From Psammoneis japonica (lineage: Eukaryota), in NCBI GenBank assembly GCA_008632985.1, contig QPGO01000011.1, forward strand, positions 1 through 64,000: a DNA stretch of 64,000 nucleotides. The letters are read 5' to 3'. The notes below the pieces were generated by a model. It worked only from the letters and a program-made list of their open reading frames with translations. It had not been told where the DNA came from and made no database searches. This document shows positions 1 to 55,720 of this stretch, in pieces (positions within the stretch are counted from its first letter, which is position 1; each line of letters opens with the position of its first letter). Position numbers and translations under genes: made by a program.

Positions 1-3000
1 GTTAATGAATCGAAAAATCTGAGAAGAATTGACTTCTTCGTTGCTTTTTCGGTCGAAAGAGCATGACAACAACATCGGCGCACGAGTGTTTTGATGGTTT
101 TTTCGACTCCAGAGCGGCTTTCAAAGCACAGGAAGACTCTCACAAGTGTTGTGAACGAGTGCTGTCGAATGAGGTTGAAGCATTTGTCGCAATGTCTTGA
201 TGGTGTCGCTTCTTGCGTCGAAGCCGCCATTGTCGTTCACAACTTTGAAGTCGGGTGAAAATCGCTTTGTGTTCACATGCATTCTTTGATGATTGAATGA
301 ACATGACATTGTAATTTTAAATCAGTGAATGAATGACAACAGGCGTTTTCACAAGAATCAGCAACAGCTGTTCTCAAGAATCGAACTCGTTCTAAGAAAA
401 CAGGACAGCAGAACTTGTGAATCGTCCGTTGAGCACGCACGTCGAGCTCGAATTTTGCATTCAATGGAAATCAGATTCTTAAGAATTGGCACCCGGATTC
501 TTGAGAATCGGTTTTCACAACTTTTGTCGTGACAGATCTCTCCATGCTGTCCTGCCAGTCTGTCCAACACAAGGGAGTGTGCTCCCCATCTTGTGGGTGT
601 CTGTCATCCTCCCCTGATGAGCAATGCAATGCTCAACAAGAAAAGAAGAGATGATCCGAATAAAAAGAGAGGACTGGAACAGCAGAACAAAGAAGAGCAC
701 CAAAAGAAATGGCCAAGACTTGGTCCGCAAACATGACAACAATCAACGATGACATCCCATCAAGGAACGGGCATGTCGGGAACAAAACATCCATCCCGCG
801 CTCAGTGCATCAGTCTTCGACAAAAAACATCAAAGGCAGTTCCCAACAAATCTTTTGGATGAATTGAGTTGTGCACCAGAGAAGAATTTTGTCAATCCAC
901 AAACAATCGACTGCAACGGGACATTCTGGCAAGTCATCCTGTCACCAAAAATTGTCGGAAGAGATGGGCCAAAGATTGGAAATCCACCATGGCGAGTGAC
1001 ACATTGAAAATGAAGCAATGGCATCCCACCTGGCAAACCAATGCTTCTGCCACACTTTGTGCTGCCCTTGAAAAACACATTGGAGAAACAAAATGCATCA
1101 CAAAGTGCTCAACATCAGAAGAACAGCGACGTGTCGGAGGTGAGCATCGCACAGCATTCAAAAAGTGATCGTCAAGTGAGGCATCTTGGTGGAAGATTGA
1201 GTTCTCAATGGCCTGATGTGTTCCTCTGTGCTGCAGGAATCCCTCCCCTGATCAAAAAATGCAGGATCATCATCGGCAATGGTGGATGGGCCCGGAGCAC
1301 AGTGAAAAGCACAAACAGACGTGACAACGGCCCTGACAACAGAGGAAAGAGATGAAACAGCGGGAGGCAACGAGACTCGGTGGCCCTCTTTCAGGGTCAC
1401 CCCACTTCCATTGGTCTTGATCGGATGAGAGAAGGAATGGCAGCATCGCATGTCCGAAGTTGATGATGGCCAAACCAAAAATCCGAACTGAACAAACTTG
1501 ACAACCAACAAAGCACTGGCAGCGTCCATGAGCAATGGGTGGCAAGCAACTCGGGTGTGACCTTGACAACAGAGGACAGTCCACAACTGGGGTGAATGTG
1601 GCCATCTTTGTGTGGAACAATGGAGTGGCCAGAAACAAAAAACTGCGGGGTCTTGAGCAGGCAGGAGCAGACTTGGCAGGAAGCACCACCGATTCGGAAG
1701 GAATTGCAAGGGATCCCGCATCAATGTCTGTAGATTGCTCACCCGTGGATTCCACAACAGACACAGCAGACTTGATGGTCAAGGAATTGGCACCCGCAGG
1801 ATCCATCCAAGCATCCACAGTGAGTGCATCTTCAACACAAGACACAACAGCAGTGTTGCAGCTGCTGGCAGCAGAGGCGGGATCTGGGCACAACTTGGAC
1901 TCAGCACATGCATGAGAACTCGAAACACTCTTCAATCCATTGGCCACAGCTTGCCCACACTCGTTTGGACCAGGTGAATGAGTTGCCAAGGCCTTGGCAA
2001 AGTCTTCAGGAGCAGGACCTGTGGCAGCAACCGGCGGGGATGCAGAACTTGAGGTTTGAGATGACTTTCCATGTGGAGCATCGGACACATCGTCCCAACA
2101 TGCAAAAGATGGAAAATCCGGATGGAAGAAGAGAAGCACAGTCTCAGCACAGACTGTCATGGCATCGTGACCATCTGAAATTGCCTTGATCATGGCTTTC
2201 TGAAGATTGGCAAGGTTTGGACGAATCAGAGAAGCTTCAGGAGCAGCTGCAAAGTGGGGAGCTTTGTCCACAATTGGACCAATCCGTGCAGATCCTCAGT
2301 CAGCACAGCCTTGGGGATGATGAGGTCATGAACAATCTTGTGATGGAGAGCAGCAACAGCATCGCTCTTGAGGCCTTGAGGAGCAAATCCGTCCAGAAGT
2401 TCTTCGGGAGCAGGCATCTCATTGGAACAAAGGATGTTCAGGTGATGATGGGCATCTGGCAAGAGATGCTGGGGGTTGAATGCAACCAGTGTCAACTTGA
2501 TCTTGGTCAAATCAATGGCGTTTTGATTTTTGTTCACCATGGTTGCGTGGGAAAAAAATCAAATTCCTGCACAGAGCTCTGGCATGTGTTCTACGGTGGT
2601 CGTTTGATCACAAATCGAGAGGTGAAAAAACAGCTGTGACAATGATGATGATTTCAACGAAGAAAAAGTCACCAAATCACACAGCTGGCATTGCAGTGGA
2701 GGAGCACAGAGGAAGAGGAACAGCGCACTGCTGCTCACAACCTTGCAGACTAGCGGCATCGGGACAATCCAATGGACATCTGGGACAGATGACAATCGTG
2801 TGCTAGATGAGAAAGAAAGTGAGCAAAGGAGAGATCATCGGATCTCTCCATGCTGTCCATGCCAGTCTGTCTGACACAAGGGAGTGCACTCCTCATCTCG
2901 GATGTCTGTCGCTGACAAGTGGAGCCACTCATCTGCATCTTCAAAAGTCATCTGTTGAGAAGTTGCGCCAGCACCGTGCATCACAAATGAACACGCTCTT

Positions 3001-4340
3001 AAGATCTTGGCAAAGATTGAGGAAAACCACTGCTGCCATCAGACCTTGCCAACATTTTGTCACTGACAAGTGGAGCCACTCATCTGCATCTTCAAAAGTC
3101 ATCTGTTGAGAAGTTGCGCCAGCGCCGTGCATCACGAATGAACACGCTCTTAAGATCTTGGCAAAGATTGAGGAAAACCACTGCTGCCATCAGACCTTGC
3201 CAACATTTGACCACAATCTGATGATGTGTTTTTTTGTTGGGGTCACCTCTCAACAGACTTGAAGCAGTGACCAAGATTGGCAAGATCAAGAATGATGGTG
3301 TGAGTGCATCAAAGAAGCAACCAAGAGATGGGCGTTGTGCTGCTGCTTTTGCTGCGGGATCAAGCCACACCTGGCAAATGGTTTGGCTGGGCTGCGCACA
3401 TTGCCGTTAAAATGTTGCATGGCCAAGCAAGGCAAAGATGACAAAGAGATGTTGTTTGGCGATGGAGGAAAAAATGCTGCACAGCTGTTTTGCCAGGTCT
3501 GCACATTCAATGAGTGGGGCTCCAGACGCCGCAAAGAAATGGATCGTCCATGAGCTGCTGAACAAAGGTGCAGTCGGCTGTAAAATTTTTGGCAAATGGC
3601 GCTCTTTTCATGGCATCCCATCCTGCACATCTTCAGAATCTAGGGCTTCAACCGTCCTTTCTGAAGTGGCGCAAATGCCCCAACTGCCCTTCAGCATTGG
3701 CGCAAAAACTCCAGCCATTCTTCTGCACCAAAGCTTCAGCCATCCTGTCTGAGGCAGCACAAAGGCTCCAACTGTTCTTTTGCATCAGCGCAAAGGCTCC
3801 AGTGCAATCTGCGACAAGCGGCAGCAGTGCAAAGGTGCCGCAGCACGCCGCCCGTGCATCTGCAAAAACAAACAAGCCACAAGAGCAAGTTGGCGGGCCA
3901 ACTGTGCATCACCCATGCATCATGCATCAACAAAACTCCTGTGGCTTGTGCAAAACACAGGTCATTCTCCTGAGTCATCTGTGTTGTGATGTCAAGAAAC
4001 ATGTGCTGTGGTGTGGTTGCAGGAAAGTGCTGGCGCCGCTGGTGCATCATGACAGTCAAAGTGCTGCTGGCAGCGCGCAATTCTTTAAATGAGCTGGTGG
4101 GGTGACTGCCGCCTCAGCATGGCCCTGCTCACCCACAAGCGCACCACTGCAAAAGAGCAGGCTCTTGGCGCTGACACTGCACATGGCACTGTTGCTGGCA
4201 TGGTGCCATGGTGGCGCAAGTGCAGCAGTGGGCTTTCACATCAAAGGACAGGGAGTGAGCAGTCTTCCCTCCAACACCAAAATGGCAGACAACACAGTCA
4301 TCTTGGCACGGGGAAAAGAACAATTTTTCACCCAGCTCAA
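1..4340. mobile_element. Degenerate, TpA-depleted repeat/transposon relic of unidentified family (may extend beyond window start)
   Basis: No credible protein ORF; six-frame ORFs almost lack Tyr and are Cys/His/Gln-rich. About 16 TA dinucleotides in 4.3 kb by manual scan. Contains internal duplications. Same composition as the piggyBac-like relic at 35.6-38.4 kb. Confidence 0.6.
2907..3208 (+). repeat. 151-bp tandem duplication (2 copies)
   Basis: ctgacaagtggagccactc...ccttgccaacattt starts at 2912 and again at 3063; copies differ at only three CG/CA sites. Confidence 0.95.
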
Positions 4341-4351
4341 AGCAAAATATT

Positions 4352-4509
4352 TGAGGATGGCCGGACTTGAACCGACGACCTGAATGTAGTCACGCGCGAC
4401 ATTGACGTGTTTAGATGAAACTTGAACGCAGGATTGTGGTTGACAAGGTGCTCGAATGACGTACCTTCGGGACTGGAATCCGAAACTCTACCAACTGAGC
4501 TACATCCTC
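4352..4509 (-). tRNA. trnW-CCA: tRNA-Trp(CCA) with an 85-nt GT-AG insert (4464-4380) in the variable loop
   Basis: Minus strand reads GAGGATG TA GCTC AGTTGGTA GAGT T TCGGA TTCCAGT CCCGA AG [insert] GTC GTCGG TTCAAGT CCGGC CATCCTC A. Perfect 7-bp acceptor stem, D-arm, T-arm and A/B boxes. Anticodon at 4476-4474. A TTTT terminator follows at 4347-4344. Confidence 0.9.
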
Positions 4510-4587
4510 ACAACGTTTATCGGTGCTTTTTTTACAATACAAAAGCTAGAAAATGTAAGCGCAGAGCCCGAGTGCGGTGAACCGTGA

Positions 4588-5779: not shown

Positions 5780-7823
5780 TTACTTTTTGGCAGGTTTTCG
5801 GTTGTGTGTCATGTGCGCCTGAACCAAGGTATTGGCGGCAAGCGCAGCCAACAAGCTCAATTCACCACACAAGGTGGCAGCCGCCACGACTTGTGCCAAC
5901 TTTTTGGAATTGTCGCCCGGCGTTGCTCCGCCTCCCTTGCATCCAATGGTTTCCAGACAAGCCGATTGAGCCGCAAGCGATGTGCCTCCACCGACCGTGC
6001 CGACTTCAATCGAAGGCATGGTACACGAGATCCACAAGTCGCCCATGTCGGTTTCTTCCAGAAGAGTAATGCAATTGGACGACTCGACGTTTTGAGCTGG
6101 ATCTTGACCCGTCGCCAAGAATACTGCCGTGACAATATTGGAAGCGTGAGCGTTGAATCCACCAACAGTACCCGCCATGGCGGATCCAACGAGATTCTTG
6201 TTGATGTTGGTCTCCACCATGGCCTTGACGGTTGTCTTGAGAGTGCTTCGTACAACATCCTTGGGAATGGTAGCCTCGACAACGACAGACTTTCCTCTTC
6301 CTTCAATCCAATTGGTAGCTGCGGCCTTCTTGTCGGTACACATGTTTCCCGAAAGCGCAACAAGAGTCAACGTCGGAAACTCCTTACGCAATAGCTCAAT
6401 GACGGCAAGACTTCCCTTGGAGACCATATTCATACCCATGGCATCACCAGCAAAGCATACCAGTCTCAAGTATACATTCTTGCCTGCAACGGTAGGATTG
6501 CACGACTTGAGTTTCCCAAAGCTCGTCGTACCCTCAAACGCTGTTTGAGACGATTGAAATTTTCTGGCTCTTCACACCACAGCTTGAGCATGGCGGCTTC
6601 TTGGGCAGATTCCATTCGAACACATGGAGCACGAGTAATCCCGTCCCTCAAAATGACAGCCGTGGCTCCGCCGCCTTGGGTGACAGCCTTGGCACCGCGG
6701 TTCGTGGATGCCACCAAGCAACCTTCCGTGGTGGCCATTGGAACGTATACCGATTCTTGATTGAGCGTCAATGGTCCCACCATGCCGACAGGCAGAGGAA
6801 TGTATCCCACGACAATTTCACAATTGGCACCGTGAACCTTGCTATAATCCAGTGATGGTTCTTGAGGAATCTTGTGAATCGCACCTCCTTTTCCCAAATC
6901 ATCGAGTTTTGAGTCGATGGACAGGCGTCGGACAATGACAGCACGGTGTGGGTCGAGTCTTTTCTCCAATTCGTGATCCTTGATTTTCTTTTGCGCTACG
7001 AGTTGTTCAATAGATTCGTTATCCAGTTCGCGGATATCTTTCACTGGAAGCGGGGAAGCTCTGAGGGACGCAGGATCAGAACATACTGGGGCCGACGGTG
7101 CCGGAGGATGCACTTTCTTCTGCTTACAGACAGAGACTGATGCAGTATCCTTGGTGGTGGTGGATCTATAGAAGAAGAAAGATGAGTTGAGTAAAAGTTA
7201 GAAGAATGAGTACTACATTTCTCAGAACAACACGGTTATTTGATGCGGGACCCAAAGCAAAAAAATGGCGGCAATCCAAGACTCCGTAGAATTCACGTAG
7301 AACCTGGTACAAACAAGCAAACTCACCGGTGCGAAGCCCCCTGTTCCGACGATGACGCCTCGTCCATCAATTCATCGGCATCGACAAAGGAAATACCAAA
7401 GAATCCAAAGAAATAGCACAAGCATACAGACCATCCGACAATAAACAGAGGCATGGACGTTGAGTTGTTGATGTACGTCGAAGCATAATTGAATCCAAAG
7501 CCTACAACAGACGCTACAAAAACCACGACGGCTGCGTAGTTCGTCCATTTCAAAATATGCCATCGCGGTTGAGGTCCATCCAATGAACTACTACGAGATC
7601 GGGTACTGACGTTGCTATGACTGCGCGTTACCACGGGACTTGCTGTATCAACCATGTTGCTGCCACTGCTGTTCAGCAACAACATTGAAACGCAGATTGT
7701 AAACAGAACGATAATTCCATAAAGCTGCGTCGACGACAAGTCATCCAATCGTGACAGCGCCGAGTCCAGTTTCATACCGATCGTTGTTGATGGCGGTGGT
7801 GCCATTGTGCTGTACTCATTCAT
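5780..7823 (-). CDS. HMGR: HMG-CoA reductase (class I) with N-terminal membrane anchor; intron 7326-7166; apparent single-base frameshift near 6545
   Basis: Motifs [52 protein letters not shown] and H..HNR; hydrophobic segments in exon 1. Confidence 0.95.
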
Positions 7824-12561: not shown

Positions 12562-12856
12562 GATGGTATTATTGGGTTTGCAATTTACTCAAATAACAGC
12601 GAACAACAACAGCTGCGTTCAAATTCTTCTCGGAATCTTCTTCTTTTTGCGCCCAAAGATCCCACAAAGATCAACGTGTAGATTTCAGTACAGTACTCTT
12701 CTACGTGAAAGAGCTCGTGGTTAGAAATAAGTGTCACGCCCGAAAAAACTCGTGTTAAATTCGAGCTCGTGGACTGGTGGAGCAAAGACGCGGCTGTACT
12801 GTATTGCTGTTGTTATCGTTCTTAGTCTACTTCTATCATCTACGAGACTACTTATC

Positions 12857-14698: not shown

Positions 14699-15191
14699 AG
14701 AGCGTGTTTTGTAATTGTTGAGAGAGGGTATATGATTTAGGTGAGAGAGGAGAAAATGGGGATTGCAGTAGATTGAGTAGCTAGTATATTTCAAAATATA
14801 GATTGTTGAAATACTGCGAGTGAGTGATTCGGGTGTAGTGTTAGATGTAGTCTATGCTAGCTATAGAAAAATATGTACTATAGCTAGAAGAGGTCGCGTA
14901 GCTTGTATGCATTTTAAGTTCGTGCTCTTTTATCGGTTGAGTCCTCTAATACATCAACGGTCTCGAGTGAATCAAGGGGTGTGGTGTAGTTTATATCAAC
15001 CGTTGAATTGACTTGGGTGGCTGAGTTTTTGATTTCGATTGTCTATAGAGAATGAAGAAGCAACGCGTAATAAAGTAGATTATGCTTCTTGTTTAGATAG
15101 AGTGAGAGAAGGTACAACACTACGAAAAGACAATTGTTTGCCTTTAGAGTTTAAAAACACTGCTCTACCATGATGATATAATCACACATTC

Positions 15192-31076: not shown

Positions 31077-31251
31077 GACGCTGACACCACCTGACAAGTC
31101 CCCCCCCTCAAGATGTACGCTCCTTTTTGATTGGATTAAAAGGTAAATAGAATGTATGGATTAAAAGGGCACTCAGGCGCAGCTATGCTGAACATAGGCA
31201 GCAGCAATTACCCTAGAGTTGCGTTATTTATGAGAGATTGATTGATGAAGG

Positions 31252-34727: not shown

Positions 34728-34828
34728 GTTCGAGTTGAGCGCAATTCGTTTCGATGTTCTCGCAAGAGAGTCCAGAGTAAACATTGTCATTTTCCGTTCA
34801 AGTAACACAAGCCCTACACTTTTCTACA

Positions 34829-35578: not shown

Positions 35579-35644
35579 GTGTTTTGTTTTATGAGAGTGT
35601 GTGATGGACTACTGATGGGTCGATCTTATTTTGAAAGAACATTA

Positions 35645-38430
35645 TTTTGAACATCCGATGGTGCGACGACACGCGAAGCCCGTGGAATTCCAAGATCGCG
35701 AACACTGCCGAACTTCCCTGCACAGTCGAACAGTGCGACTGATGAGCTCAACAGCCGCAACGTGATGCACACGGTGCTGACCCACCCAACCGACACAGGC
35801 TGCTGCCACCACACCAGCGGCGACTGCCGACAATCCAACAGCAAATCCCAACCCTCCCTCCTCCAACAACACTCCACCAGTGCCTGACACTCCTGCTCCT
35901 GTTGCAACAAATGCTCCTCGGTCCTGATCACGCAGGCAATGACCGTTTTGGAAATTGGTGGACAACTTTGTGGAAGACGAGCACTCAACCAACGCCGGAC
36001 AACGACCAACTTCTCAAAGATGGCAGAGGGGGGCGATGCTGGCATCCAGGAGAACAACAGTGGCTTCTTGGGCCAGCACAGATTAAATCATCTTTGCAGA
36101 TTCCTGTTCTGCATTGTTTGGCACCATCAAAGAAAATGAGAGCGCCAAGCTGTGGTTTGTCGACAATGCCAACTCTTTGTTTGCCAGAATGGACGCACAA
36201 CAGGTCAGTGATGCCAAGAGCCACAGCAGCATTGTCTTCACCATTGTGATGGAGGATGCATGCTGACAAAATGATGCTCTTCATTTGAAAAGAAAATTTG
36301 GGGTTGGGTGTTGTGTTTGAGAAACTCCAGCACTGAAAATTGTGGGTGGGGGGCAAGTGGCAAAAAAATGCATGTGCAAAGCTTTTGTTTCCAAATCAAA
36401 TTGCAAGTGGGGCACCTTGTTGTTGTCTCTTGCATTGTCATGTGTTGCTGCTCCCTGCATTGCATGCAATGCCTTGGTGCTGCATGCTGGCCCATCATTT
36501 TCTGTCTTTGCACCAATTTGTTGCATCAGAGCTCATTGACAGTGCTGCCAATGTCATTGCTGTGTTGCAGCAGCATTGTTTTTTGCTCCATTTCAAACAT
36601 CAGTGCTGACATCATGGGAATTGTGAGGATGCACACCAACAACAAATTGCTCTCCATTGTTCAGAAAGAATGTTTGGAAACACACAATGTGTTTGAGAGA
36701 AGCTTTGACTGTTGATGAGTGGCAACAAAGATGCAGCCAGCAGCTCAGCTTTTTTAGCATCAAAATGAGTTGCAGTGCACTGTTGTCTGTTGTGTTGCTG
36801 CTGGAGTTTTTGTGGCACAAGAATCTGGAGAGAATGGCGACAGACACAGCACTGCCCCAAGCCAGAGCAGTGCATGTGCAGCAGAAGACAGACAAGCAAA
36901 TTGCTGATGAAACCAGTGGTTGTCATGCTTCATTGTGCTTGATGCACATTTTAGATGTCTGTGCCATTGGACACAAATGAGATCAGCAGATGTTCACCTT
37001 GTTTTCTTTGATCTGTTTGGTGCAAGAAGCAACGTGGCTGCTGGCGCCACCCAGGGCTCTGTGAGCTGGTGCCCTCCAGAGATGCATCATCAGAGTTGAG
37101 TGCAAGCCCAGAGATGACCATGCCGCTGTCAATGTTTGTGTTGCCAACATTGCCAAAGATGGCAGTTTTGCACTGAAAAGCAAAAAACAGCAGCACAAAA
37201 AGCAATTGTGAGGGTCAGCAGAGAGAATGTGAACGCAGACAAAAAGGACAATCTGACACAACAGAGCAATGGTGCTGTGATGCATGCATGTGCACATGCC
37301 CACTTGTTTGATGCTCCACTGGATTCTGTCCTGCAGTCAATGAAAATGACAACACAGACTCTGTTGTTGCCAGTTGCTTGGCTGTGCTTGTCACCATGAA
37401 ATGAGCACACCGATGCAGTGAGTCACAAAGTGAAAACAACAACAAACTGCTCCAAGCCACCATCACAGTGCACCTTGGCTGCCATGTTGACAATCTCTCC
37501 ATGTGACATCAAGGTGCTGTCAACTGCAATGACTCTAAATGGCAACATGCCACAATCTCAGTTGTCTTTTTGTTGGGTGCTGCACTGCACTGACACAAAA
37601 AATGTGCACATGTTGCTGTGGCAAACCAAAAATTGAGACCACCACACAGAAATTTCCAGCACAGTGTCTCCAGGATGGACAACGCCAAGGAGTTGTCACA
37701 CTGGAGAGTTTGTTGCCAACACTTTGTCATTGGATGCGGGAGCAGCACACTCAAGGGTTCATCAGCACCAGATTGAGGAAGTCAGAATGAGAGCTGACCT
37801 TGAGTTGCAGGTGCTTGACATCTTCCAACCCAAAGCAGCAAAGGAGTGCTCTGACACTTGCAGAAAGATTGATCTCTACAATCGGAGCTGCAGGAAAGAC
37901 AACCTGCAGATCAAATGGAAGAAGTTGGGCACCCTGGACTGGCCCATCCATGTGAATTTCTCAGTCTTTCTTGGCATGGTTGTCATTGACACATGGTGGA
38001 GAGTGTGTGCAACAGTTGCAACAATGGCGGTTGCACAGTGTGTGAAAAGGACTTCTGTGAGTTTCTTGTGGAAGAGTCAATTGACAATGGCTCATCTGCC
38101 CTGCCGCAAGTCACTGCTCATTGAAACTCTTCTTCTGCATCTGCTGGTGTCTGTCAGTGGACAGATTGCTGGTGGGTGGAACAGACAATCATTTGACACC
38201 AACCAAGAAGCACAGAAAGCCCAGGCATGGAGCAGTTGCCAATTGCTTCTTGTTGCAGGGTGCCTGCAGGGTGCCTGCAGGGTGTGTGGTGAAAGACAGC
38301 CCACATCTGTTTGCTGTGCAAGCAGATGGCTCCAGATGGATGAGAGATGTTTTTGTGCACAACCAGGAAGGGGGAAAACTGCTTTGCCATTCATGCCGCT
38401 GACAAACACAGTTCATGTACATCTTGGTAA
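35645..38430 (+). mobile_element. TpA-depleted block containing a degenerate piggyBac-like transposase relic (about 37650-38410, plus strand)
   Basis: QPKAAKECSDTCRKIDLYNRSCRKDNLQIKWKKLGTLDWPIHVNFSVFLGMVVIDTW resembles, from recall, the piggyBac-type Y..xG.ID.HN..R...W...DxW block. It is followed by a frameshifted Cys-rich tail (QGACRVC...C...CFAIHAADKH). Five TA in 2.8 kb. Confidence 0.7.
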
Positions 38431-41376: not shown

Positions 41377-41464
41377 TCATTTTTTCGATCGTGTGTCGTG
41401 TGCTTATAGAAGACGGGACTCGTTCCTTGCCCGCGAGTCCCGCCAAATCGTGACTAAAAATAAA

Positions 41465-42890
41465 TTTCGCGCCGGCTCCAAACAACTGCCTCCGTGCTCC
41501 GGCGTCTCCTCTCGTGAACTTGAGATCCAGAACGATGAGACGCAGCAGTCGCATGTTGTGCACCCAAAAGCAAGTCGATCGGGAATGTTGAAGGGCACTT
41601 GGCCTGTGAAGTGCAACAGAAAAGGCGCAAGGTGGCAGCACTTCTTCCCCCATCTTCTCCCTTGGTGTTGACATGCTGGCTGTTGCTCTGCTGCAGAGCA
41701 AAGAGTTTTCCATTGGCTGGGGCTGCCACCTGCCTCGATGTGTGCTCAGATCCCAGACACAACTGCACTTCAGACTTCATCTGCTGCTCCTCACATGACA
41801 CAAAATGATTCTTGATGTGATCCCGTGGCTCAAGTTTCTGAGCAGATCAGTTGACTGGAGCTGTGGTGCAATTGGTCTGATTGCTTGGATGTCATGGGCT
41901 GCTTTGACATGCTGCTTAGAGTCACAACATGCTGCTGCACACAGCCTGGATGGACAATCAGTTCAAAGAATTTTGAGCAACAGCTGCTGACAAGAAACAC
42001 AAGAGCAAGAGCCAGCGCACTGCTGCTGTTGGCACTTGCCAGCGGGATGTCATCTGGACATGCTCAGAATGAAGCAAAGGTGGGACAATCTCTTCTGAGA
42101 GTTTGTTGTTTGGGCAGATTGAGACCCTTGGCAATTCAAGAATGGACTGCTTTGCATGAGGACAAGGCTCATGCCAAAAAGGATGGCTGATGCAAGCTGA
42201 GTGTGGCGGGCCAAAAATGCCAAGCTGGGCAAATGAACAAGAGGACAGTCGCTGGACAGATGCCTGCCAACAACCTGGATTCCTGTGTCCTGTGGAAACA
42301 AATGCTCCACAGGAGCACTGCAAAAATGAAGGTTGACTGTCGTGGTGTGCTCTGCTCTCAAAAAGAATTTCAACACCATTCCAAAAGAGTTTGGAGATCT
42401 TGTTGGAGCAAAAAATGAAGCCCCAGATCATTGGCCATCTGCAGGATCTGGCAATCATCAAGACAGAGCAGGGCAATGCAACTCCACAATTGTGGACAGG
42501 GGCCAGAGAGAAATTGTCATCACACAGCACACAATGATGTGAAAGTGACATTTTCATTGCGATGTTCGATTGGTTCCTTTTCTTTTGAGAAGCAGACATG
42601 CTGCATCAATTTTTCCCCTTCTTCTTCAAATCAAATCAACACTTTTGCACAGCTTCAGAAGTCACAAAATCTGGAAAGCCATGTCGCTGTGCTGCGTCAG
42701 CTGTGGATTTGGTTCCGCTCGAGGAGCCACCGAAGATTCCATGGTGGATCACATTGTGGGGTGCATGGCATTGAAGTTAGGATGGGACACCAGCACTGTG
42801 CGCATTGCAATGATTGTCCACGTTCAAACGGACATGGTCGTCGCATGTCATCCTTTGAGCATCTTTTGGAGCCTCTTGAGAGCTCTCACG
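41465..42890. mobile_element. TpA- and CpG-depleted degenerate block, probable transposon relic
   Basis: Two TA (both TTAG) in about 1.4 kb; no credible ORF; family not recognised. Confidence 0.5.
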
Positions 42891-43121
42891 GCTATGATGG
42901 ATGTGAGGAGTTTCACTGATTGAGCCAAGATGATTCATGCAGTGTACACATCAAGTTGTGTGGTAGCTCCTCACAACACTGATGACGAGTATAGGTGAAA
43001 GGTGCCGCACCTAGGAAAAGGTCCAAGTTCTAAGAAGCGGTTAGCAAAGTTAGATCCTATCCCAAAGCTTAAGCCAAATTCAAAAATTGCCCCATTCCCG
43101 AACCTTGCCCCTATAATACGA

Positions 43122-47477: not shown

Positions 47478-48166
47478 AATGACAACCATAGCGAATCAGT
47501 CTTGTGACTGTAGTGTGCATGCCGTATGGTGTTGTCCTGGTTTGGAAAGAAGCTGTATCAAATCTTAGGGAACTGACGCCTGTCTGTAGACTGTGAACTG
47601 AGAAAGGTTGCCAATGGCGTACCCTACTTCCTTTTCCTCGTTTCGAAAGATACACGCTGCGGCCTCCCTACTCGCTAGAGAAATAATTCACAAAAATCGA
47701 TCCACCTTTCACTGAGAAATTAATAGAAAGAAATCTAGGTTAGTCAATTTGTTTTGAGAAGCAAGATCCTGTCGACGAAATGCTCTGCGATTACGAGAAC
47801 TTTCGCCATATAAGAACAATAGCTGTGGGAGGATTAACTTGGAGACACGACAAGTGGGATTTATGATTGACAACTGTACTGCCGATCCATATTGCTACCG
47901 TATGCAATATATGTGGCATCACTGGCCTTTTGAACTCAATCAGTGCTATCCTTATTGAAGGAAAAGCGGTACTGTAGCCATCATTTAGGGTGAAGGTTTC
48001 GCATGGGCTGTAGCTATTCTGGTGAGCTTGAAATGTTGCCGCGAGCCACAACCGAAGGTTTGTCGTTGGCAGGTGCTACTATCAAACATGTTTTGAAACG
48101 ACTTTAGGGGCATTGTTCATGCTACTAGAGTACCATACAAGCACATCAAGCTTGTGCTCTAAGAAG

Positions 48167-49716
48167 CTATTTTTGAACTCGGATGGCGAGCAGAAAGTAA
48201 TCCTTCACATTTGCTTGAGACTCAACAAAGACAGTGTACGTTGCTGATCCCTTTACTTGTTTAGCAATACAAGTTCCAGAGGGAATGTCTTCTGTTAAAG
48301 ATGCCTTGACCTGCACCCGCTTCACCGCTCCCGCCGGTCCCACCTCCAACACTGCCTCGGCTTTTGACTTGCAATGTATAAAGACGCTGGCCTGCTCGTC
48401 TCTCGATAAAGCAAAATCAACTTTTGACTTCTCCCCTGGCTTGAGATACAGGAGCTTACCGTTTGCCTACTAGCGTCACTGTTGCCCTGCTCCATCAAGA
48501 CCCTGTCGAAATCAGACCCGACACCGCCAAAGTTACGAAGAAGTCCTTTGGGATCCACCAGTTCTTCCAGTCTCTTCTTTGACGTTCCCGAATCAATTTC
48601 CACCTTGGCGGCCGTTCTCGGATCTAGAAACTTTCGAATAATGACCCACGAGTATGAGAAAAAGTACGGTGCGTTGATAATGACAATTCGGTTCAGAACT
48701 TCGGGGAAACAGTCGACCGCCGGCATTATGCCCTTGAGCAACGCCAGGGTTCGTGAGTTGATTGTACTCGCCGCAAGTCCCTTCAGGTTGACCACTACGA
48801 GCAATTCGCATCTTGCATTTCTGTTTTTGCTTTTAGCTCTTTCGACTTGCATCTTTACAGCGGTCGTGAGCGCGTACCAAACGTAAAATATCAATCGTTC
48901 TTCCGGTTTCACGAGGCAATCCATCCCCTCAATGCTAAATCTCTCGGCCAAAAAGTAGACAACCGGACAGCCATTTCTGCTGATTCCCGAGAAAACAAAA
49001 GGAAATTGGGATAAAAAGACAGTCACAGGACATCCAAGAGCAGCGTCAATGTCCTTGTAAAAGTCGGCGCCTTTACCTTGTAAAAAGCAATCCGCGTGAC
49101 TGCCAATCATATCCAAGGTTTGGTCCGGATCAAACTGTCGAGCTCTTAAACAGCGACAAAGTGCATATGGCTCTTCTTCAACTGTACTGTAAACGTGTAC
49201 TATCTCTCGATGGGTTTGGTAGTTCGGTTGTTTGAGTCTCGCACGGAACTCGAGGCAACTCTTGATTTCAGTTTCAGAGAGTTCTCCTGGATAACCGGCC
49301 AAATGTGGAGTGCCCTCATCTGCTTGGGTCAGAGCTTCACGGATAATCTTAGTAGACTTTCCAGATTCCTTATTGGTCTTGAGTGTTTCCGGAACATCCA
49401 TAAGAATAGACTTTGGTGGGTGAGGGTCGGGCACTCGTGCTGGTGCGTACTGAAACCGAGTAGTGTTGTCGCTAACGAGTTGTTCGCGGGTACTGAGAAA
49501 GATTGTTTTAGCCATATTTTCCTGCTCCTCTCTCGACAGATTCTCAAAGTCAGATTCGGACTGGATTGCACTGAAATAATACATTGACGATCTCTTGTTA
49601 TCTGGTGAAACTGGTGTGTTCTGTTCATCGCGTGTTGCCGTCGCACCTACTACTTCTTCTTCCTTGCTTTCGACATCATCGCCTTGTCTTTTACGTAGAC
49701 AACACAACTTTATCAT
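48167..49716 (-). CDS. Sec14/CRAL-TRIO lipid-binding protein; apparent frameshift near 48455 joining a beta-rich C-terminus
   Basis: Motifs LCRCLRARQFD, FPEVLNRIVIINAPYFFSYSWVIIRKFLDPRTAAKV and LLRNFGG; N-terminal MIKLCC. Confidence 0.87.
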
Positions 49717-50018
49717 CGTTTTGCTTTGTATGCTGCGCTCATACAGTGTTTAGGGGCAATGATAGTACTGTACGTCAGCGGCGTGCCATCAATGATCATC
49801 GTCAAAAGTCAGAAGCGATTGACTTCAAGAAAAATGAGGCACATGAAGAACTTTTAAAATAATTATATACGAATATATTATTGACGTATGTCATAACACA
49901 AATTCAACAGTAACTAATAATCGATATAGTACCGGATAATTTCAATAGTGAATATCTTCCGCATCGTCTATGAATATACATAAGCTGGGAAAACACACAC
50001 AAAAAAACCAGCGCTGCA

Positions 50019-51858
50019 CCATGGCGGCTTCGTCTTTTATTCAACGACCTAGAAACAATGGGATGAGCAGTCGCCATACAAAGAGGAGCTCTTCTGCAAG
50101 CAGTATTCGTACCATTGCGTTTTGTCTGGTGACTGGTTTTATTGGCTTTTATGCGGGTGTACTTTGGGGTATGCAGATGGGGCATACAAGCAACACTGAA
50201 ACAACGACAAACTCTGATCCGATTGCAAGTGCAGCCAATCCAATACAGCAACGAGTTATCACGCAACAACAGAAACCAAAGGGTTCTGATACCGGTACGA
50301 GTCGTTTCTCACCAGGAACTGCAAAAACTGTGTATGGAGCAACGCGAGTGAATCGCCTGGACTTTGCTAAGAAATTTGACATGGGAGTACCGCTCGATCC
50401 ATCTCAGCCGGGCAACAACGAAGTCTTGATTCTGCACAACCGTGCATCAAAGCCACAGGTTCCTGGCGTTGATAGTGTGTCAGGCAATGGTCCTCCTCCT
50501 CTGCTCTCGGTCGACCAAGCGACAAAGTCCTGTGATAACTTGCACGTTGTATTGACCGATTACAACCCCAAGCGAAAGCAATGTATTGCAGTTATGGGAC
50601 AGTATGAAGCTTTTCATATTCAAAAGTGGATGAGATTGCCCTTGGAAAAGAAGCCAATCGACTCGTCTGTGCCACTCCGACTGGTAAACCGTGGTGCGCA
50701 GCAAAACGGTGGCAAGTCAACCAACCCTCCAACCAGAGAACAAACCAAACAGTACTGGGAAATCCTTCAGACTTATCTATCTGCTCTGGATGACGTCTTG
50801 GCAAAACTAAAACCATTGGCTGAAAAGGTTGCAATTAACAATACGGTCATTGTCATGGTGTGCAATATGGGTCAATCCGAGCTCTTGCTAAACTTTGCTT
50901 GCTCGGCAAGGGCAAAGGGATTGGATACTTCGCATGTTCTTGTCTTTGCAACAGATGAAGAGACTTTGCAGCTTGCTCAAGGAATCGGTCTTACTGCCTT
51001 TTATGATGAAATTGTAAGTGGCGTGAGGTAATGGTTATCTGAATCTTCTTACTTTCTCTGATGCAAACGCTGACATGTGATTGTACTTTGCGTCGGTTGC
51101 AGAACTTTAAGCGCATGCCCTCGGGCGCGGCTCGGGTATATTTGGATCGAAACTTTGCCGCCATGATGATGGCCAAGGTATTTTGCGTTCAAATGGTCAG
51201 CATGTTGGGTTATGACGTGTTGTTCCAAGATGTTGATGTCATTTGGTACAGCAATCCTCTCGAATACTTTCACGATACCACCCACCCGAACTATGGATTT
51301 GATATTTACTTTCAGGATGATGGAAACCACGCCTTGTTTTATGCACCCTATTCTGCCAACACGGGAATGTACTATATGCGTCAAAACGACAGAACGCAGT
51401 ACTTTATGAATTCCTTTTTACTAGCTGGCGACCTGATTCTATCGACAAAGAGTCATCAGATTGCTCTTATTGCGCTACTGAATGAACACGCAAGTATGTA
51501 CGGTCTAAAGGTCAAGATCCAGAGTCGGGACGAAGATGAATTTCCTGGCGGATTTCACTACCATCGACGAAAAGCGTACATGAAGGAACTTGTTGAAGGA
51601 ACAAAGACGCCGTATATCTTCCACATGTCGTGGACAAAGAACAAGGACAACAAACTGCTCTTTATGCGTCAAATGGGAATGTGGTACTTGCAAGACAAAT
51701 GCATCGCCAAGACTGCCGAGAATATTGGATCGACAAGCTTGGTGGATGCATGTTGCCTGGCTGAACCCAACGTATCGTGCCATTACAGTGACAAGCCGAG
51801 CAAAATCCCGTGCAAAGACAGTCCGCCCATTGATCAAGGCCGCCCCTCGTGGTGGTAG
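50019..51858 (+). CDS. Nucleotide-diphospho-sugar transferase (GT77-like), paralog 2; intron 51014-51102
   Basis: Type II TM anchor; motifs LFQDVDVIW, FQDDG, ANTGMYY, SHQ and FHMSWT. Confidence 0.87.
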
Positions 51859-52434
51859 AGAACCGCGTGATCATAATTGGATAACGTGATATCTACTAAC
51901 GGTAGGGCCATCTAGAGTACTGTGTCGTGATATATTCGTGTTCTTGCAAATGAACCGCTCTACTTCATCGAGAATACCCAGAATGAATAGAAGAGACTGT
52001 CTGCTATTTCTCAAGAGGTCCGTGCCTTGTGACATTCGCCGTCAGCATTGCTTACCTTATTGTTCGTGTAGTTGCTGGTAGTTGTTGCGTTACTGTACAT
52101 ACAGTAGACTATGTTCTATGTTGTGTCTGATTTGATAGTTGCTTGCGGCGCTGCGGGGTCAATTTTTGAAAATTTGGGTGTTCGCAGGTGCATTCAATTA
52201 TTCGTTACTGAAGGATAAAAACGTTTGTCAATTCATCCCTCAGAGCTCGCTCAGAGCGGCGATCGCCATGAGACCACAGCAGGATAGATGAGGCGGACAG
52301 CATAGAAGTAGCAACGGCGAGCGAGTCTCACACCCTTTATCTCTTAATATGATACATGGTTTGGAGAACGTTCAATGTTCACATGGTTATTCCTGGCTTT
52401 TGTAACGTTGCCTCCTTGGAGCACCGAATCATCC

Positions 52435-53361
52435 ATGTGGAAGTGTTGTTTCTTAAAGTGCTGCAGCGATGAAACACCTCGGTTGGAGCAATGGCACGAT
52501 GAAATGAAGCACGCAATTGAGCACGCGAGCTTTCTAGATCAGGATTTTTGCAGGAGCTTGCTGTTTGAAGGCGATGATTCGGCGATTGACAAGGAGAAAC
52601 AATTGGAATGGTTGCTCGGCGACAGCATCGCATCGCACGAAAGCGACAAGATTGTTGTACTGAAAGGGCTGCCTCAAAGGCCGTTCTATAAAGAACTAGC
52701 CAATCGCCTAGCGTTGTGTTCTGCACAAGAGGTCAGTGACGAGAAGAACTTGCTTTCTCTGTCGGGTCCATGCTCACCTCGGACACCGCACTTGGTTCCT
52801 GCTGCCGACATGGGCATGTCAGAGACAATACGAAAGCTGCCGTCCTCTTTACCGTCAACACCAATGTCTGTTTTCAAGTGGCTGAAGGAAGTACGCGAGG
52901 ACGGGATAATGTACATGCTTGGAATGCGACAGACTATAGGAACCTTGAGTGATTCGTACCTGCTCCCGCCAAAACAAAAAGACCTGTTGGATGCAGCATG
53001 CAGGATTCATAGGCCTTGTTCCAAAAGTATGTTGACCGTGGCAGCAAGAGCAAGAGCTAAGCACGCACACCGAGGTAGCCGAGACCAGTTTTTTGGCGTC
53101 GTAAAGGGAGGAGAAAAAGAGCAGAATGTAGAGTCATTCCGTTTGGTACAGAAATTGCTGAAGGAAGCGGTATGGATTAATATTCACACGTTTGGTGGTC
53201 TAGATGGCACACCTGTACTGGAAGTTCGTATTCTATCTGGATATGGAGCACGATGGAAAGCGGACTGGTTTTCGAACAGGGTGCAACCGTCAGATGTTGA
53301 GTTTCGCGGATTCCTCGAGCCACAAATGGCCAGTGGACATGAACTGAAGTGGCGACACTGA
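52435..53361 (+). CDS. Conserved hypothetical protein with C-terminal LTVAARARAKH...GYGARW...FRGFLEP...GHELKWRH domain; start may be 52375
   Basis: Intact 328-codon ORF. The C-terminus resembles, from recall, that of plant ASCH-domain-associated proteins. Confidence 0.75.
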   Translation: MWKCCFLKCCSDETPRLEQWHDEMKHAIEHASFLDQDFCRSLLFEGDDSAIDKEKQLEWLLGDSIASHESDKIVVLKGLPQRPFYKELANRLALCSAQEVSDEKNLLSLSGPCSPRTPHLVPAADMGMSETIRKLPSSLPSTPMSVFKWLKEVREDGIMYMLGMRQTIGTLSDSYLLPPKQKDLLDAACRIHRPCSKSMLTVAARARAKHAHRGSRDQFFGVVKGGEKEQNVESFRLVQKLLKEAVWINIHTFGGLDGTPVLEVRILSGYGARWKADWFSNRVQPSDVEFRGFLEPQMASGHELKWRH

Positions 53362-53599
53362 CACTTTAGGTGTAACAGTACCTGTAAAGGAGGCTATAGT
53401 AGAGCTACTTCTACGGGTAGTAGGGCTACTACACAAACTCGACCTACCCCATACCCTCCCACCCCGTGAAAGATGCTACTAAATATTTTTACGTTTTGCT
53501 CGTCCGTCATCCGTGTTCGCGTCGTCAATGTTGGCAATTGAGGAGGAATCGGGGTACAGTGGTCTCTTGTCCCCAGTGGTAAAAAGACTCCTCTATTTG

Positions 53600-55720
53600 G
53601 TGATTCCTCCTCAAACTTTCAATTCGAGTGATTTTCTTTTTGCGTTTCACCACAACTCACCCACACTCACCTGTTGTCATTGCCTTTGGCAGAGTGTGAA
53701 TGGGCCCAACACCTCCCCAGCAGAGGTGCATGACTTTGTTGACTCCTTCATTGATCAATTTGACAAAAATGAGTGAGCACTGAAGGAATGTCATCCCTGG
53801 AAATTCATTCTGGTTTGTGAGCCACAATGCAAGGAGAGAACAAGAGAAACACACACACACACTCCCGACATGTGACATCAAGGACAGCCCAATGATGAAA
53901 CAAAAACCCAGTGTGATGTGGACACTGCCCTTTCTCAATGCCAGTGCCACCAAGCAAAGTGAAGAGGTTCTGAAACATCTTGCAACAAAGTGAAAGTGCG
54001 CAGCTGTCTAGCAAGATCAGGAGCCAAAAAGAACTGTCTGCTCCAGAAATGGGGTTCCAGCGGAATGAGCAACAATGCAGCCTTCTTTTGCTGCTGTGAC
54101 AGGTGTGCAGAATGTGCGTGGTTGTTAAAAAGCAAATGTCCAGAGAAGCAGCTGTTGCTGGAGAGCATGAGAAATCCAAGTTGTTCTCTTCAGTGCATGA
54201 AAAAATGTTCTGGTGTGTTCAGGGCAGAGACAAATCTTGACAAGGACAGCCAGCAGGTTGGAAGAAAATTGCTTGGAGTGCTGCTTGCTGCTCTGTGTTG
54301 GTCACAGTTAAAGAAGCACATCTGGGTGCTGGGACACAACCTCCAAAGAAGCCTGTTTGGCGATGATCTTCTCATGTGGAGTTTCCTTCAGATGCTGCCA
54401 GAGACAACAAAGATGTGCCATGCTTCTCATCAAGAGAGGTTGGGATCAAGGGCACCGATGTCACAAGCTGTGCTCCACTTGCTTGCAGCACAGCCAGAAG
54501 TGAGATGCATCAAATGGAAGACAACATCAAAAGGACATTGATTTGTGAGAGAGCAAGACATTTCCAAGGTCCTCACCAAGATTTGAGCTGACAATGCTGC
54601 AAGCACAACAAGAAGTGCAGAACAATGCAGTGTTGCAGAGCCTGGCGCATCTGCTGTGGCAAAACTTGCACCTGTGTGCTGAGAGGAACAAGAGCTCTTG
54701 ACTTGATGGTGTCACTTCCCACACCAGCACGACTGCAGTCTGTGAAGGATCTGAAGAGCAAGCAGTGCTCCTCTGTGGCCAGCCCAGCTCAAACCCTGCT
54801 GCTGTTGTTCTACCTGCAGCATCTGCCACAAGAACAAGGAGCAGCAAAGTCAAAGCACATCAGTCAAATGATGGAAGGCGACAGAACATTGCCAGGGGCA
54901 GCACTTTGGTGGTTGTCTCATGCTCTTCCTGTTCTGTTTGCACAATGCATGCTGGCATCTGACCAAGCAAGCATCTTCCACATCAGATGAAGATGTCTGC
55001 AATGCAGTGAGAAAGAGCATGGAGTGTGGACTTGCCATGATGCCCCTCTTCAAGTTGACAAGTGTGGTGTCATCCAGAGCAAGAAGCTGTGAGAGACACA
55101 CAGGCATGCTCAATGCTCAAAATGAAAGCAACCCCAAAAACTCCAAACACTCTTTGAGGCACGACCAGTGATCGCCAATTGACTGAAGCGATCAAGTCAA
55201 ACCACTTTTCTTGCACACAACCCCAAGAATCTGTGTTCCCTTGCACTTCATGGCTTGCTGGCACACGTTTTTCAAGTCACGACTCATGCTCTTGTGCCTT
55301 TTGCAGCACAGCAGCCACAGCTGCCTTGCAAAAACCAAGCAAGATCACAACCCACAGGTGTCAGGGCCACCATGTCAGGATCATCAAAGCTGATGCCAAA
55401 GAAACAATGAAGCAAACCTTCTGTCACTTGCCATGCTCTTCTCAAGGAAAGTGAGCTTTGTGGCCTTGCTGCGAGCAGTGCGAGTGGCAGCTGGTGCTTT
55501 GCACTGATGAACACACGGGACTGAGAAAGAGAGAACGAAAGAGCAGCCCCCAAATGAGGACATCATCACCTGATGACATGGCCAAGCAGCTGCAGACAAA
55601 TAGATGCATCAAGAGAAAGTCCATTCAGAAACCACCGAAATTGGGTGACTCCCTCAACCGGTGCGGCCACAGTGCACCTCTCCACAGACTGCTCGCTCGG
55701 CCTTTTTGCCGAACCGTCTG
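53600..55720. mobile_element. TpA- and CpG-depleted degenerate block, probable transposon relic
   Basis: Five TA in about 2.1 kb; ORFs nearly Tyr-free and Cys/His-rich; family not recognised. Confidence 0.5.

Follow-up and report, generated by a model that had tools for sequence, protein, structure and literature searches.

Within a 64,000-nucleotide stretch of a contig from the diatom Psammoneis japonica (hereafter the window), we characterized four blocks that contain almost no TpA dinucleotides and that apparently consist of non-coding, multi-copy or foreign DNA lying amid ordinary diatom genes. Similarity searches with genes beside the blocks likewise indicate a diatom host. Block 1 (1..4348) is truncated by the start of the window. 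An intron-containing tRNA gene on the minus strand (4352..4509; Rfam RF00005, 44.6 bits), which ARAGORN missed, has its 3' end 4 nucleotides from the right edge of this block and marks the end of the TA-free zone. Block 2 (35643..38418) and block 4 (53594..55729) cover 2.8 kb and 2.1 kb, respectively, and each retains five or six TA. Block 3 (41461..42890) retains two or three in 1.4 kb and begins 85 nucleotides upstream of the ATG at which a SET-domain gene starts; on the right it ends somewhere in 42778-42893.

The TA counts made by hand in the original prediction (16 in 1-4340, 5 in 35645-38416, 2 in 41465-42890, 5 in 53600-55720 and none in 663-1730) were reproduced exactly. Relative to the expectation from base composition, the observed/expected ratio (o/e) of TA is 0.058, 0.027, 0.022 and 0.037 in blocks 1 to 4, whereas five flanking stretches have ratios of 0.55-0.63. 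If TA were as frequent in the blocks as in the flanks (2289 in 53,310 nucleotides), approximately 459 TA would be expected in their 10,690 nucleotides, as opposed to the 31 present when boundary TAs are included. Runs without TA are 309-1070 nucleotides long within the blocks, and the longest elsewhere in the window is 220 nucleotides. This last run belongs to a GC-rich FG-nucleoporin gene. The block boundaries are as sharp as had been claimed, with normal TA density regained within tens of bases at 4348, 35643, 38418, 41461, 53594 and 55729. TG and CA are likewise as abundant as claimed, with o/e values of 1.68-2.01 and 1.63-1.86 in the blocks versus approximately 1.17 in the flanks, and G+C content is hardly shifted (0.49 in the blocks versus 0.475).

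CpG is also scarce in the blocks, where its o/e is 0.21-0.51 (0.51 in block 1, 0.25 in block 2 and 0.21 in block 4) compared to 0.94-1.08 in the flanks. The original prediction had laid little stress on this depletion. All 19 of the sub-blocks into which we divided the blocks have a TA o/e of 0-0.10, while CG o/e in the same sub-blocks spans 0.08-1.00. Because the erasure of TA is uniform and the loss of CpG ranges from none to 90%, the two losses are separable processes. Positions 1-660 of block 1 keep CpG at an o/e of 1.00 with a TA o/e of 0.10, and positions 35643-36060 of block 2 retain CpG (o/e 0.81) though TA has been erased; the TA-free zone reaches past the CpG-depleted zone. The block cores have a CG o/e of 0.08-0.5, which is the pattern expected of methylated-CpG decay, and the CpG-depleted parts of the blocks are presumably methylated. 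That diatom transposable elements carry CG methylation by DNMT5a is documented (PMC9998398); the original prediction had named DNMT5 in this role.

Per kilobase, approximately 40 TA and 33 CG have been lost and 72 TG plus CA gained, and the total of 2337 TG plus CA agrees within 1% with the 2349 predicted from the lost TA and the lost CG. This composition can be accounted for only if, in addition to the decay of CpG, TpA was rewritten as TpG or CpA. A simulation in which flank DNA was mutated by TA>TG/CA changes with a preference for TAY, together with 62% CG>TG/CA changes, matches all 16 dinucleotide ratios, including secondary shifts such as the rise of GpC and the fall of ApT and of CC/GG. 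Read from the composition and from the small repeats described below, the direction of change would be from TpA toward TpG and CpA.

The simulation also depends on sequence context. Over the 12 dinucleotides that are not directly targeted, the RMSD is 0.049 with a TAY preference, 0.078 with equal rates, 0.114 with a TAR preference and 0.092 for unchanged DNA. Surviving TAs are mostly in YTAR (19 of 27, where 4.2 are expected; context test, G=53, 9 df), and none of the 27 is in RTAY, where 8.5 are expected. The excess of TG is mostly TGC (730 over a base of 392) and TGT, and the contexts of the products give a chi-square of 44.6 for the TAY preference, 83.2 for equal rates and 168.4 for the reverse preference. 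Given an ancestral sequence like the present flanks, which this preference presupposes, A in 5'-TAY-3' mutates roughly four times faster than A in 5'-TAR-3'.

Block 1 contains internal repeats, all on the plus strand. The copies of a 151-nucleotide tandem duplication (2907..3208) are 98% identical, and all three differences between them are CpG/CpA. They show no TG/CA doublets and have a surviving TTAA in common, which places the duplication after the loss of TA. A hidden repeat with an 88-nucleotide period (3640..3803; 3640-3715 versus 3728-3803) has a DNA identity of 72%, but this rises to 96% once the sequence is recoded as purines and pyrimidines; the 18 transitions and 3 transversions include two TG/CA doublets. 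Two further doublets are found between a dispersed repeat (533..608) and its partner at 2839-2913, which differ by 11 transitions and no transversions. Such a doublet marks an ancestral CG or TA that was resolved separately in each copy. Summed over the internal repeats, the differences comprise 32 transitions and only 3 transversions, and TG/CA doublets occur four times; the ratio among the differences listed for the flanks is 14:8 (Fisher p=0.015). Of the 21 positions at which the copies of the oldest repeat differ, 14 are not in CG/TA-type columns; either transitions were raised more generally, or this repeat is simply old.

The TA-poor pattern recurs in k-mer contigs from public reads (run X1), which come from the same single sample and study and hence fall short of the independent short reads that had been envisaged. 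Because contigs covering the blocks were assembled from reads, the pattern is in the reads and not in the assembly alone. The X1 contigs show one difference from the window over 35200-36645, one over 37176-38395, and 10 differences plus 4 gaps over 47838-55199, and the depth of those matching the blocks (59-69) is close to that of the flanks (57-64). For block 2, read-contig depths of 1.6-3.5 times the flanks also occur, and there are partial contig matches of 85-95%; these two observations alone suggest several copies, and block 2 appears to be multi-copy. Other copies are TA-poor too, as six loose contig ends from X1 (counted by eye) contain 1 TA in 163 letters where approximately 7 are expected, and no unmutated master copy of block 2 was present among the X1 contig ends examined. 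Among the 40 listed of the 154 differences between contigs and window, those of the CG/TA<->TG/CA class account for 10 of 16 difference events in the blocks and 6 of 21 in the flanks (p=0.05). In addition, an X2 contig that overlaps block 3 runs on into sequence with 3 TA and 3 CG in 60 letters. One 30-letter end, compared by eye, agrees in register at 24 of 30 positions, and all six differences are transitions, including TA versus CA, CG versus TG, CG versus CA and a TG/CA doublet.

The blocks had been described as transposon-like and as silenced repeats. The extra depth and the partial contig matches agree with a repeated nature; the transposon-like one gained nothing from our searches. The 126 ORFs searched have no significant match in Pfam, and neither a reverse transcriptase nor any other retroelement domain is among them. 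Searches with three ORFs returned no homologue of the 341-aa ORF and none of the 215-aa ORF; for the 279-aa ORF they returned no relative among viruses. A search for terminal repeats was likewise negative. ORF lengths are near chance, with TGA being almost the sole remaining stop.

A second, targeted process that converts TpA to TpG or CpA had been postulated for this locus as a possibly undescribed one. The bookkeeping, the simulation and the transition-biased repeats support the process itself, but it can no longer be called undescribed. Two viral inserts in Bigelowiella natans acquired 231 new mutations, of which 230 were A>G or T>C, all of these at TpA (Mettrop et al., bioRxiv 10.64898/2026.01.13.699255).

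We consider it probable that two mutational processes, both yielding TpG and CpA, rewrote the blocks at the DNA level, with adenine deamination as the likeliest chemistry. The first would be a targeted, near-saturating transition process that turned TpA on both strands into TpG or CpA and erased approximately 95% of the TpA; it was confined to the blocks, stopping no more than tens of bases from where they end. The second would be the ordinary decay of methylated CpG to TpG or CpA in the presumably methylated parts. Adenine deamination was a candidate in the original prediction and is still the leading one; adenine in DNA would be converted enzymatically to hypoxanthine, which would be copied as G at the next replication. 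A plausible enzyme is a deaminase of the ADAT2/TadA type, which in its natural tRNA target likewise meets U 5' of the edited A, and it may be directed to chromatin that is silenced or foreign. The conversion may have occurred in place at this locus and may still be active. Since C>T changes would regenerate TA, and only 27-31 TA stand beside approximately 2340 TG plus CA, we infer that the conversion either continues or ended only a very short time ago.

TpA is palindromic, such that A>G on one strand equals T>C on the other and the preference for TAY equals one for RTA. The thymine of TpA could thus have been modified, by hydroxylation of the 5hmU or base-J type, with mispairing or excision repair then giving C. 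Base J and 5hmU are reported to occur at TpA in kinetoplastids and dinoflagellates. However, we know of no T-hydroxylating enzyme and no 5hmU/base-J type base in diatoms, and 5hmU:A pairs are not strongly mutagenic, which makes this route unlikely.

About as unlikely is A-to-I editing of retroelement RNA by an ADAR- or ADAT-like enzyme before reverse transcription, in which copies would have integrated already hypermutated. Sharp block edges would then match the ends of elements and other copies would be TA-poor as well. However, editing of RNA predicts TA>TG on the sense strand only, and the blocks contain 1138 TG and 1201 CA that are randomly interspersed in each block with no strand patches (runs-test z of 0.13 to -0.95, similar to 8 control stretches). 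The conversion acts on both strands. The lack of a retroelement domain among the 126 ORFs also speaks against this origin, as does the TAR context of the surviving TAs, since the 3' base favoured by ADAR is G. Such enzymes do favour U 5' of the edited A; in B. natans the mutations arose in culture in DNA that was already integrated (bioRxiv 10.64898/2026.01.13.699255).

The original prediction also offered Pol-eta-like error-prone patch repair triggered by T:G mismatches from 5mC deamination. TpA loss and CpG decay share the same blocks, and Pol eta is prone to A>G errors at A:T pairs. Its hotspot is the WA motif, yet the other dinucleotides concerned are essentially the same in blocks and flanks (o/e of AA 1.17 versus 1.14, TT 1.17 versus 1.11, AT 0.89 versus 0.95), and scattered repair patches would hardly give near-complete loss of one dinucleotide. 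The mismatch trigger is unneeded and conflicts with the CpG-intact segments at 1-660 and 35643-36060, in which TA is equally erased; the stretches that lost CpG and those that lost TpA do not coincide. We therefore regard Pol eta as a poor fit and very unlikely.

An equally faint prospect is that the elements, or a donor such as a virus, were TA-free and CpG-poor from the start. The TA-poor copies among the read contigs and the missing TA-rich master of block 2 would agree with this. However, blastn found no similarity of the blocks to each other, and an inherited common composition is unlikely for four mutually unrelated sequences. To our knowledge no genome has a TA o/e near 0.04, and tyrosine cannot be encoded without TA. 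Moreover, the copies differ by TG/CA doublets and nearly always by transitions, converted flank-like DNA gives the whole dinucleotide profile, and the X2 contig continues from block 3 into sequence that bears TA and CG.

A sequencing or assembly artefact, such as a misread modified base at TpA or polishing errors in methylated DNA, is the least credible account: one sample is behind all data, with platform and library not on record, but k-mer contigs from the raw run match the blocks with one difference per 1.2-1.4 kb at flank-like depth, strand-dependent misreading would produce CA/TG conflicts at each former TA, broken contigs and halved depth, and evolutionary traces, namely a duplication that postdates the erasure and differences that are allelic or paralogous, speak for real sequence.

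The sole report of TpA-specific A:T>G:C hypermutation so far is a 2026 preprint that deals with a single rhizarian alga. If a diatom carries a saturated footprint of it, the phenomenon would not be the curiosity of one species, and one of the most important groups of marine primary producers would have a genome-defence or mutational system of this kind. Candidate enzymes are narrowed down by the preference of TAY over TAR, by the even use of strands and by the fact that the loss of TpA does not depend on the decay of methylated CpG. Blocks of this kind are stripped of codons for tyrosine and of two stop codons out of three, which results in long spurious ORFs and evasion of homology searches; many diatom repeats and viral inserts could thereby stay hidden from annotation. 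A natural DNA adenine deaminase would also interest builders of base editors. As a speculative extension, diatoms might possess a still active defence, guided by chromatin or RNA, that edits adenine in invading or repeated DNA and so rids it of TpA, the same system as in Bigelowiella, run by an ADAT2/TadA-like deaminase that keeps its U-A-pyrimidine tRNA-loop specificity on DNA. If true, the system would be ancient in the SAR supergroup or have spread horizontally; as an adenine base editor of natural origin, it would also be the true mirror image of fungal RIP.

Among known systems, methylated-CpG decay of the kind expected in diatom elements methylated by DNMT5 (PMC9998398) accounts, in the block cores, for CpG o/e values of 0.08-0.5 and for some of the surplus TG/CA. 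It is unable to remove TpA, however, and the TA-free zone is also wider than the CpG-depleted zone.

RIP in ascomycete fungi converts CpA to TpA by C>T changes, and the DNA becomes AT-rich and TpA-rich. The blocks share with it transition hypermutation, here of apparently repeated or foreign DNA, sharp borders, a dinucleotide context and a ruined target sequence. The direction is opposite, with TpA destroyed and G+C unchanged. RIP had been discounted at the outset on the grounds that it makes TpA, and we likewise reject it, given the near absence of TpA, the surplus of CpA and a G+C of 0.49 versus 0.475.

APOBEC3 acts on retroviral cDNA and ADAR on viral or repeat dsRNA, and both leave a one-strand signature. 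The process proposed here would resemble them as an enzymatic deamination directed against foreign nucleic acid with a one-base 5' context, which for ADAR is a preferred U. Unlike them, it hits both strands evenly and its 3' preference is for a pyrimidine rather than G; the control-like runs-test values are not those of editing on a single-stranded intermediate. WA mutagenesis of the Pol-eta type is likewise not seen in the AA ratio.

ADAT2/ADAT3 and TadA deaminate A34 of tRNA, 3' of the conserved U33, and in bacterial Arg tRNA the next base is C, giving U-A-C. This substrate fits the TAY preference, with C above T, that we infer for the blocks. We know of no activity of diatom ADAT2 on DNA, and no deaminase gene lies in this window; ADAT2/TadA is thus a lead for the mechanism and not a claim of membership. 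DNA editing by the amphioxus and trypanosome ADAT2 is cited in the B. natans study (bioRxiv 10.64898/2026.01.13.699255).

That study followed mutation-accumulation lines with integrated giant-virus (NCLDV) and virophage DNA and found TpA-poor, CpA+TpG-rich clusters genome-wide, many of them unannotated (Mettrop et al.). A regional de novo mutation rate approximately 1000 times the usual one is among the marks of this kind of hypermutation. Its footprints are defined by a Rho_TpA no higher than 0.43 together with a Rho_CpA+TpG of at least 1.52 in consecutive 1-kb windows, and the four blocks pass both thresholds (TA o/e 0.02-0.06, TG and CA o/e 1.6-2.0 over 1.4-4.3 kb). As in B. natans, TpA alone is targeted, here judged by composition, either strand can be hit so that TpG and CpA both arise, and the process keeps to particular regions. 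The mean TpA frequency of low-TpA CDS in B. natans is 0.0018, compared to approximately 0.0026-0.0029 in the blocks (28-31 TA in ~10.7 kb). The host here is a diatom (Stramenopiles) rather than a chlorarachniophyte (Rhizaria), and the targets are short (1.4 to >4.3 kb), unclassifiable blocks rather than recognisable viral inserts. Erasure in the blocks is near-saturated, whereas the NCLDV region of B. natans retains a Rho_TpA of 0.45. CpG is co-depleted here, while the available text of the preprint mentions neither CpG nor flanking context. The mutations of B. natans were observed directly and those of the blocks are known from composition. Our literature search found no diatom report of TpA-restricted hypermutation. 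By analogy, TpA conversion in the blocks would be the same kind of event as that in the integrated viral DNA of B. natans, for which TpA-restricted hypermutation has already been reported; what is new here is the lineage.

Four sharply bounded blocks of the window are nearly devoid of TpA: 1-4348 (block 1, cut by the window start), 35643-38418 (block 2), 41461-42890 (block 3, whose right edge falls between 42778 and 42893) and 53594-55729 (block 4). The original prediction counted 16, 5, 2 and 5 TA in the four intervals it delimited and none in 663-1730, and our recount gave exactly these numbers. The observed/expected ratio (o/e) of TA is 0.02-0.06 in the blocks compared with 0.55-0.63 in five flanking stretches. 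The whole window carries 2320 TA, only 31 of them in the blocks (10,690 nucleotides), where approximately 459 would be expected at the flank frequency, and the longest TA-free run is 1070 nucleotides within the blocks versus 220 elsewhere. At each block edge, normal TA density is regained within tens of bases. TG and CA reach 1.6-2.0 times expectation in the blocks, and CpG is also reduced (o/e 0.21-0.51 versus about 1.0 outside), with G+C unaltered. Apart from the blocks, TA is scarce only within an Nsp1-like FG-nucleoporin gene (12731-14794, GC 0.59), which has TA gaps of 220 and 197 nucleotides and contains long ORFs overlapping on opposite strands. CpG is normal there, so its scarcity of TA is a compositional effect and not hypermutation.

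Several features suggest that the block sequence is a product of conversion rather than native in composition. Each kilobase of block lacks approximately 40 TA and 33 CG and holds a surplus of 72 TG plus CA. A model built from flank tetranucleotide frequencies predicts 2349 TG plus CA in the blocks, and 2337 are observed. When flank DNA was altered in simulation by changing TA, together with 62% of CG, to TG or CA, the result matched the shifts of all 16 dinucleotides and also yielded secondary shifts (GpC up; ApT and CC/GG down). When the repeats within block 1 were compared with one another, we counted 32 transitions and 3 transversions, against a ratio of 14:8 for the listed flank differences (p=0.015). 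The repeat differences include four adjacent TG/CA double differences, as would arise from an ancestral CG or TA resolved independently in two copies, and in one old repeat many transitions fall outside CG and TA contexts. A 151-nucleotide tandem duplication in block 1 has no such doublets, just three CpG/CpA differences and a surviving TTAA common to both copies, and is therefore younger than the TA erasure, with CpG decay continuing since. Another repeat in block 1, with a period of 88 nucleotides (3640-3803), was missed by blastn; it has 72% identity as DNA and 96% after recoding to purines and pyrimidines, which removes all transitions. Such recoding may be generally useful for repeat families blurred by transition hypermutation.

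Contigs assembled from one public sequencing run (X1), made from the only sample in which this DNA was found, match blocks 2 and 4 nearly letter for letter at flank depth, and thus the TA-poor pattern of these blocks is present in the reads themselves, all reads behind our comparisons coming from one sample. Strand-dependent misreading of a modified base would break the read contigs and halve their depth, and their near-identity at flank depth argues against it. Among the 40 of 154 differences between window and read contigs that were listed, exchanges between CG or TA and TG or CA account for 10 of 16 events inside the blocks and 6 of 21 in the flanks. One contig from a second run (X2) overlaps block 3 and runs on into sequence that bears TA and CG. 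Over 30 letters of this contig compared by eye, a very small sample, every difference from the window is a transition (TA/CA, CG/TG and CG/CA).

TpA loss is independent of CpG loss, because TA is erased evenly (o/e 0-0.10 in 19 of 19 sub-blocks) while the CpG o/e of sub-blocks varies widely, from 1.00 (1-660) and 0.81 (35643-36060) down to 0.08. The TA-free end at 41461-41760 has likewise kept its CpG. The simplest explanation for the reduction of CpG is the established decay of CpG methylated by DNMT5 in diatom repeats (PMC9998398).

TG and CA are equally frequent in the blocks (1138:1201) and randomly interspersed, and a search of the blocks for kataegis-like strand patches found none. This balance points to a process that, over time, strikes either strand of duplex DNA. 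Surviving TA are mostly YTAR (19 of 27, comprising nine TTAA, six CTAA/TTAG and four CTAG) and never RTAY, and the TG surplus is concentrated in TGC and TGT. If the ancestral sequence was flank-like, rates of approximately 2.7 events per site where a pyrimidine follows TA (TAY) and 0.62 where a purine follows (TAR) account for the surviving TA, the conversion products and the whole dinucleotide profile; equal rates agree less well, and the opposite preference far less well. We take the process to be still active, or to have ceased very recently, since ordinary C>T mutation would regenerate TA and yet the blocks hold only some 30 TA against 2340 TG/CA.

The most likely route is adenine deamination of DNA at TpA. 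It would be catalyzed by a deaminase of the ADAT2/TadA type, steered to silenced or foreign chromatin and acting in place at this locus. The U33-A34-C35 of its tRNA substrate resembles the U-A-pyrimidine context favored in the conversion of block TA. Modification of thymine is a less probable alternative, compatible with the data because TpA is palindromic. Polymerase error at WA motifs, as expected of the Pol-eta-like repair put forward as a candidate in the original prediction, is disfavored by the unaltered frequencies of AA, TT and AT in the blocks. Editing of a single RNA or cDNA strand is likewise difficult to reconcile with TG and CA that are equally common and randomly mixed. GC-biased gene conversion would neither stay limited to TpA nor remove CpG.

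The blocks had been described as transposon-like. Block 2, at least, appears to belong to a multi-copy family, since read contigs there reach 1.6-3.5 times the depth of the flanks and numerous read contigs match portions of the blocks at 85-95%. However, the description is unproven, as no significant Pfam match, homologue or terminal repeat was found. The other copies glimpsed in the read contigs are likewise TA-poor. We detected no nucleotide similarity among the four blocks with blastn, and after purine/pyrimidine recoding nothing between blocks, or between blocks and the rest of the window, rose above shuffles, the sole repeats recovered being within block 1. A search for direct or inverted repeats at the block termini found none. 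Pfam searches of 126 stop-to-stop block ORFs of at least 60 amino acids gave chance-level matches only (best E 0.004-0.005). For a 341-amino-acid ORF, a word-indexed search and a full HMMER scan of 1.84 billion representatives returned zero matches, and an Atlas search returned none that was usable. A homologue search with the 215-amino-acid ORF of block 3 was empty, and the 279-amino-acid ORF of block 2 had no relative among viral contigs. Weak blastp matches among block ORFs (30% over 63-70 amino acids, E 1e-5 to 5e-4, with composition correction off) may stem from composition. Run X2 yielded no contig that covers block 2 or block 4, which says nothing on silence.

Because TpA is erased, Tyr codons, TAA and TAG are all but gone from the blocks. 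The stops on both strands are 511 TGA versus 49 TAA and TAG, and in the long block ORFs Tyr makes up 0-0.7% of residues and Cys 3-8%. Dinucleotide shuffles yield equally long ORFs for three of the four blocks; since shuffled sequences without TAA and TAG reach about the same lengths, ORF length is no evidence of coding. In DNA of this kind, gene finders would predict long Cys/His-rich ORFs that are spurious.

The flanks contain dense, ordinary, intron-poor eukaryotic genes, among them HMG-CoA reductase, enoyl-CoA hydratase, DAG kinase, prenyltransferase, VIT1, a CRAL-TRIO protein, the FG nucleoporin, a SET-domain array and an S41 protease whose organism-named matches are all from diatoms, none above 60% identity. 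By these matches the host is a diatom. The blocks occupy intergenic space, with block 2 stopping 67 nucleotides and block 3 85 nucleotides upstream of a start codon. A tRNA gene on the reverse strand (4352-4509; Rfam 44.6 bits; missed by ARAGORN) must have a long intron, as it spans 158 nucleotides. Its 3' end lies 4 nucleotides from the edge of block 1, possibly a sign that the block 1 element inserted next to a tRNA gene. The SET-domain array consists of at least seven ORFs, all on the reverse strand (26399-31097, 38989-41376 and 43122-44961; Pfam E 1e-11 to 2e-4). One SET gene is flanked by blocks 2 and 3, and we detected no similarity of the blocks to the array genes. X2 contigs skip two introns that start with GTAAGT and end with AG, at 40239-40322 (reverse strand, 84 nucleotides) and 51014-51102 (forward strand, 89 nucleotides), so this run, which is not on record as RNA, looks cDNA-derived. 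The 84-nucleotide intron is in frame, and the 795-amino-acid ORF of the SET gene therefore reads through it. DUF1800 and DUF1501, usually encoded by two adjacent genes in Planctomycetes-type bacteria, are fused in a single 1564-amino-acid ORF (18094-22788, reverse strand), possibly a gene fusion that the diatom acquired from bacteria. HMG-CoA reductase (5780-7113, reverse strand) is spread across two neighboring ORFs, 5780-6469 and 6466-7113, that are in different frames, which may reflect an intron, a frameshift or an assembly error.

Hypermutation of this kind was very recently described in the chlorarachniophyte Bigelowiella natans (preprint, bioRxiv 10.64898/2026.01.13.699255; statements here concern its accessible part). 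In mutation-accumulation lines, 230 of 231 new mutations in integrated giant-virus and virophage regions were A>G or T>C, each of the 230 at TpA, and mutation rates in the viral regions were approximately 1000-fold over the genome. The same preprint reports 124 clusters of TpA-poor, CpA- and TpG-rich windows and 324 low-TpA coding sequences enriched for DDE and reverse-transcriptase domains, and proposes an ADAT2-like adenosine deaminase as the enzyme; its accessible text makes no mention of diatoms, CpG or flanking context. Our literature searches turned up no account of TpA erasure in a diatom. The original prediction of an 'inverse RIP' converting TpA to TpG or CpA in silenced repeats is largely right in kind, as such a process exists, but in light of the B. 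natans preprint it is no longer undescribed. The diatom blocks lie within the cluster thresholds in the accessible part of that preprint, and their depletion is even stronger. They represent the same kind of hypermutation in a new major lineage, and what they add is this lineage, near-saturation, independence from CpG decay and a preference for TAY.
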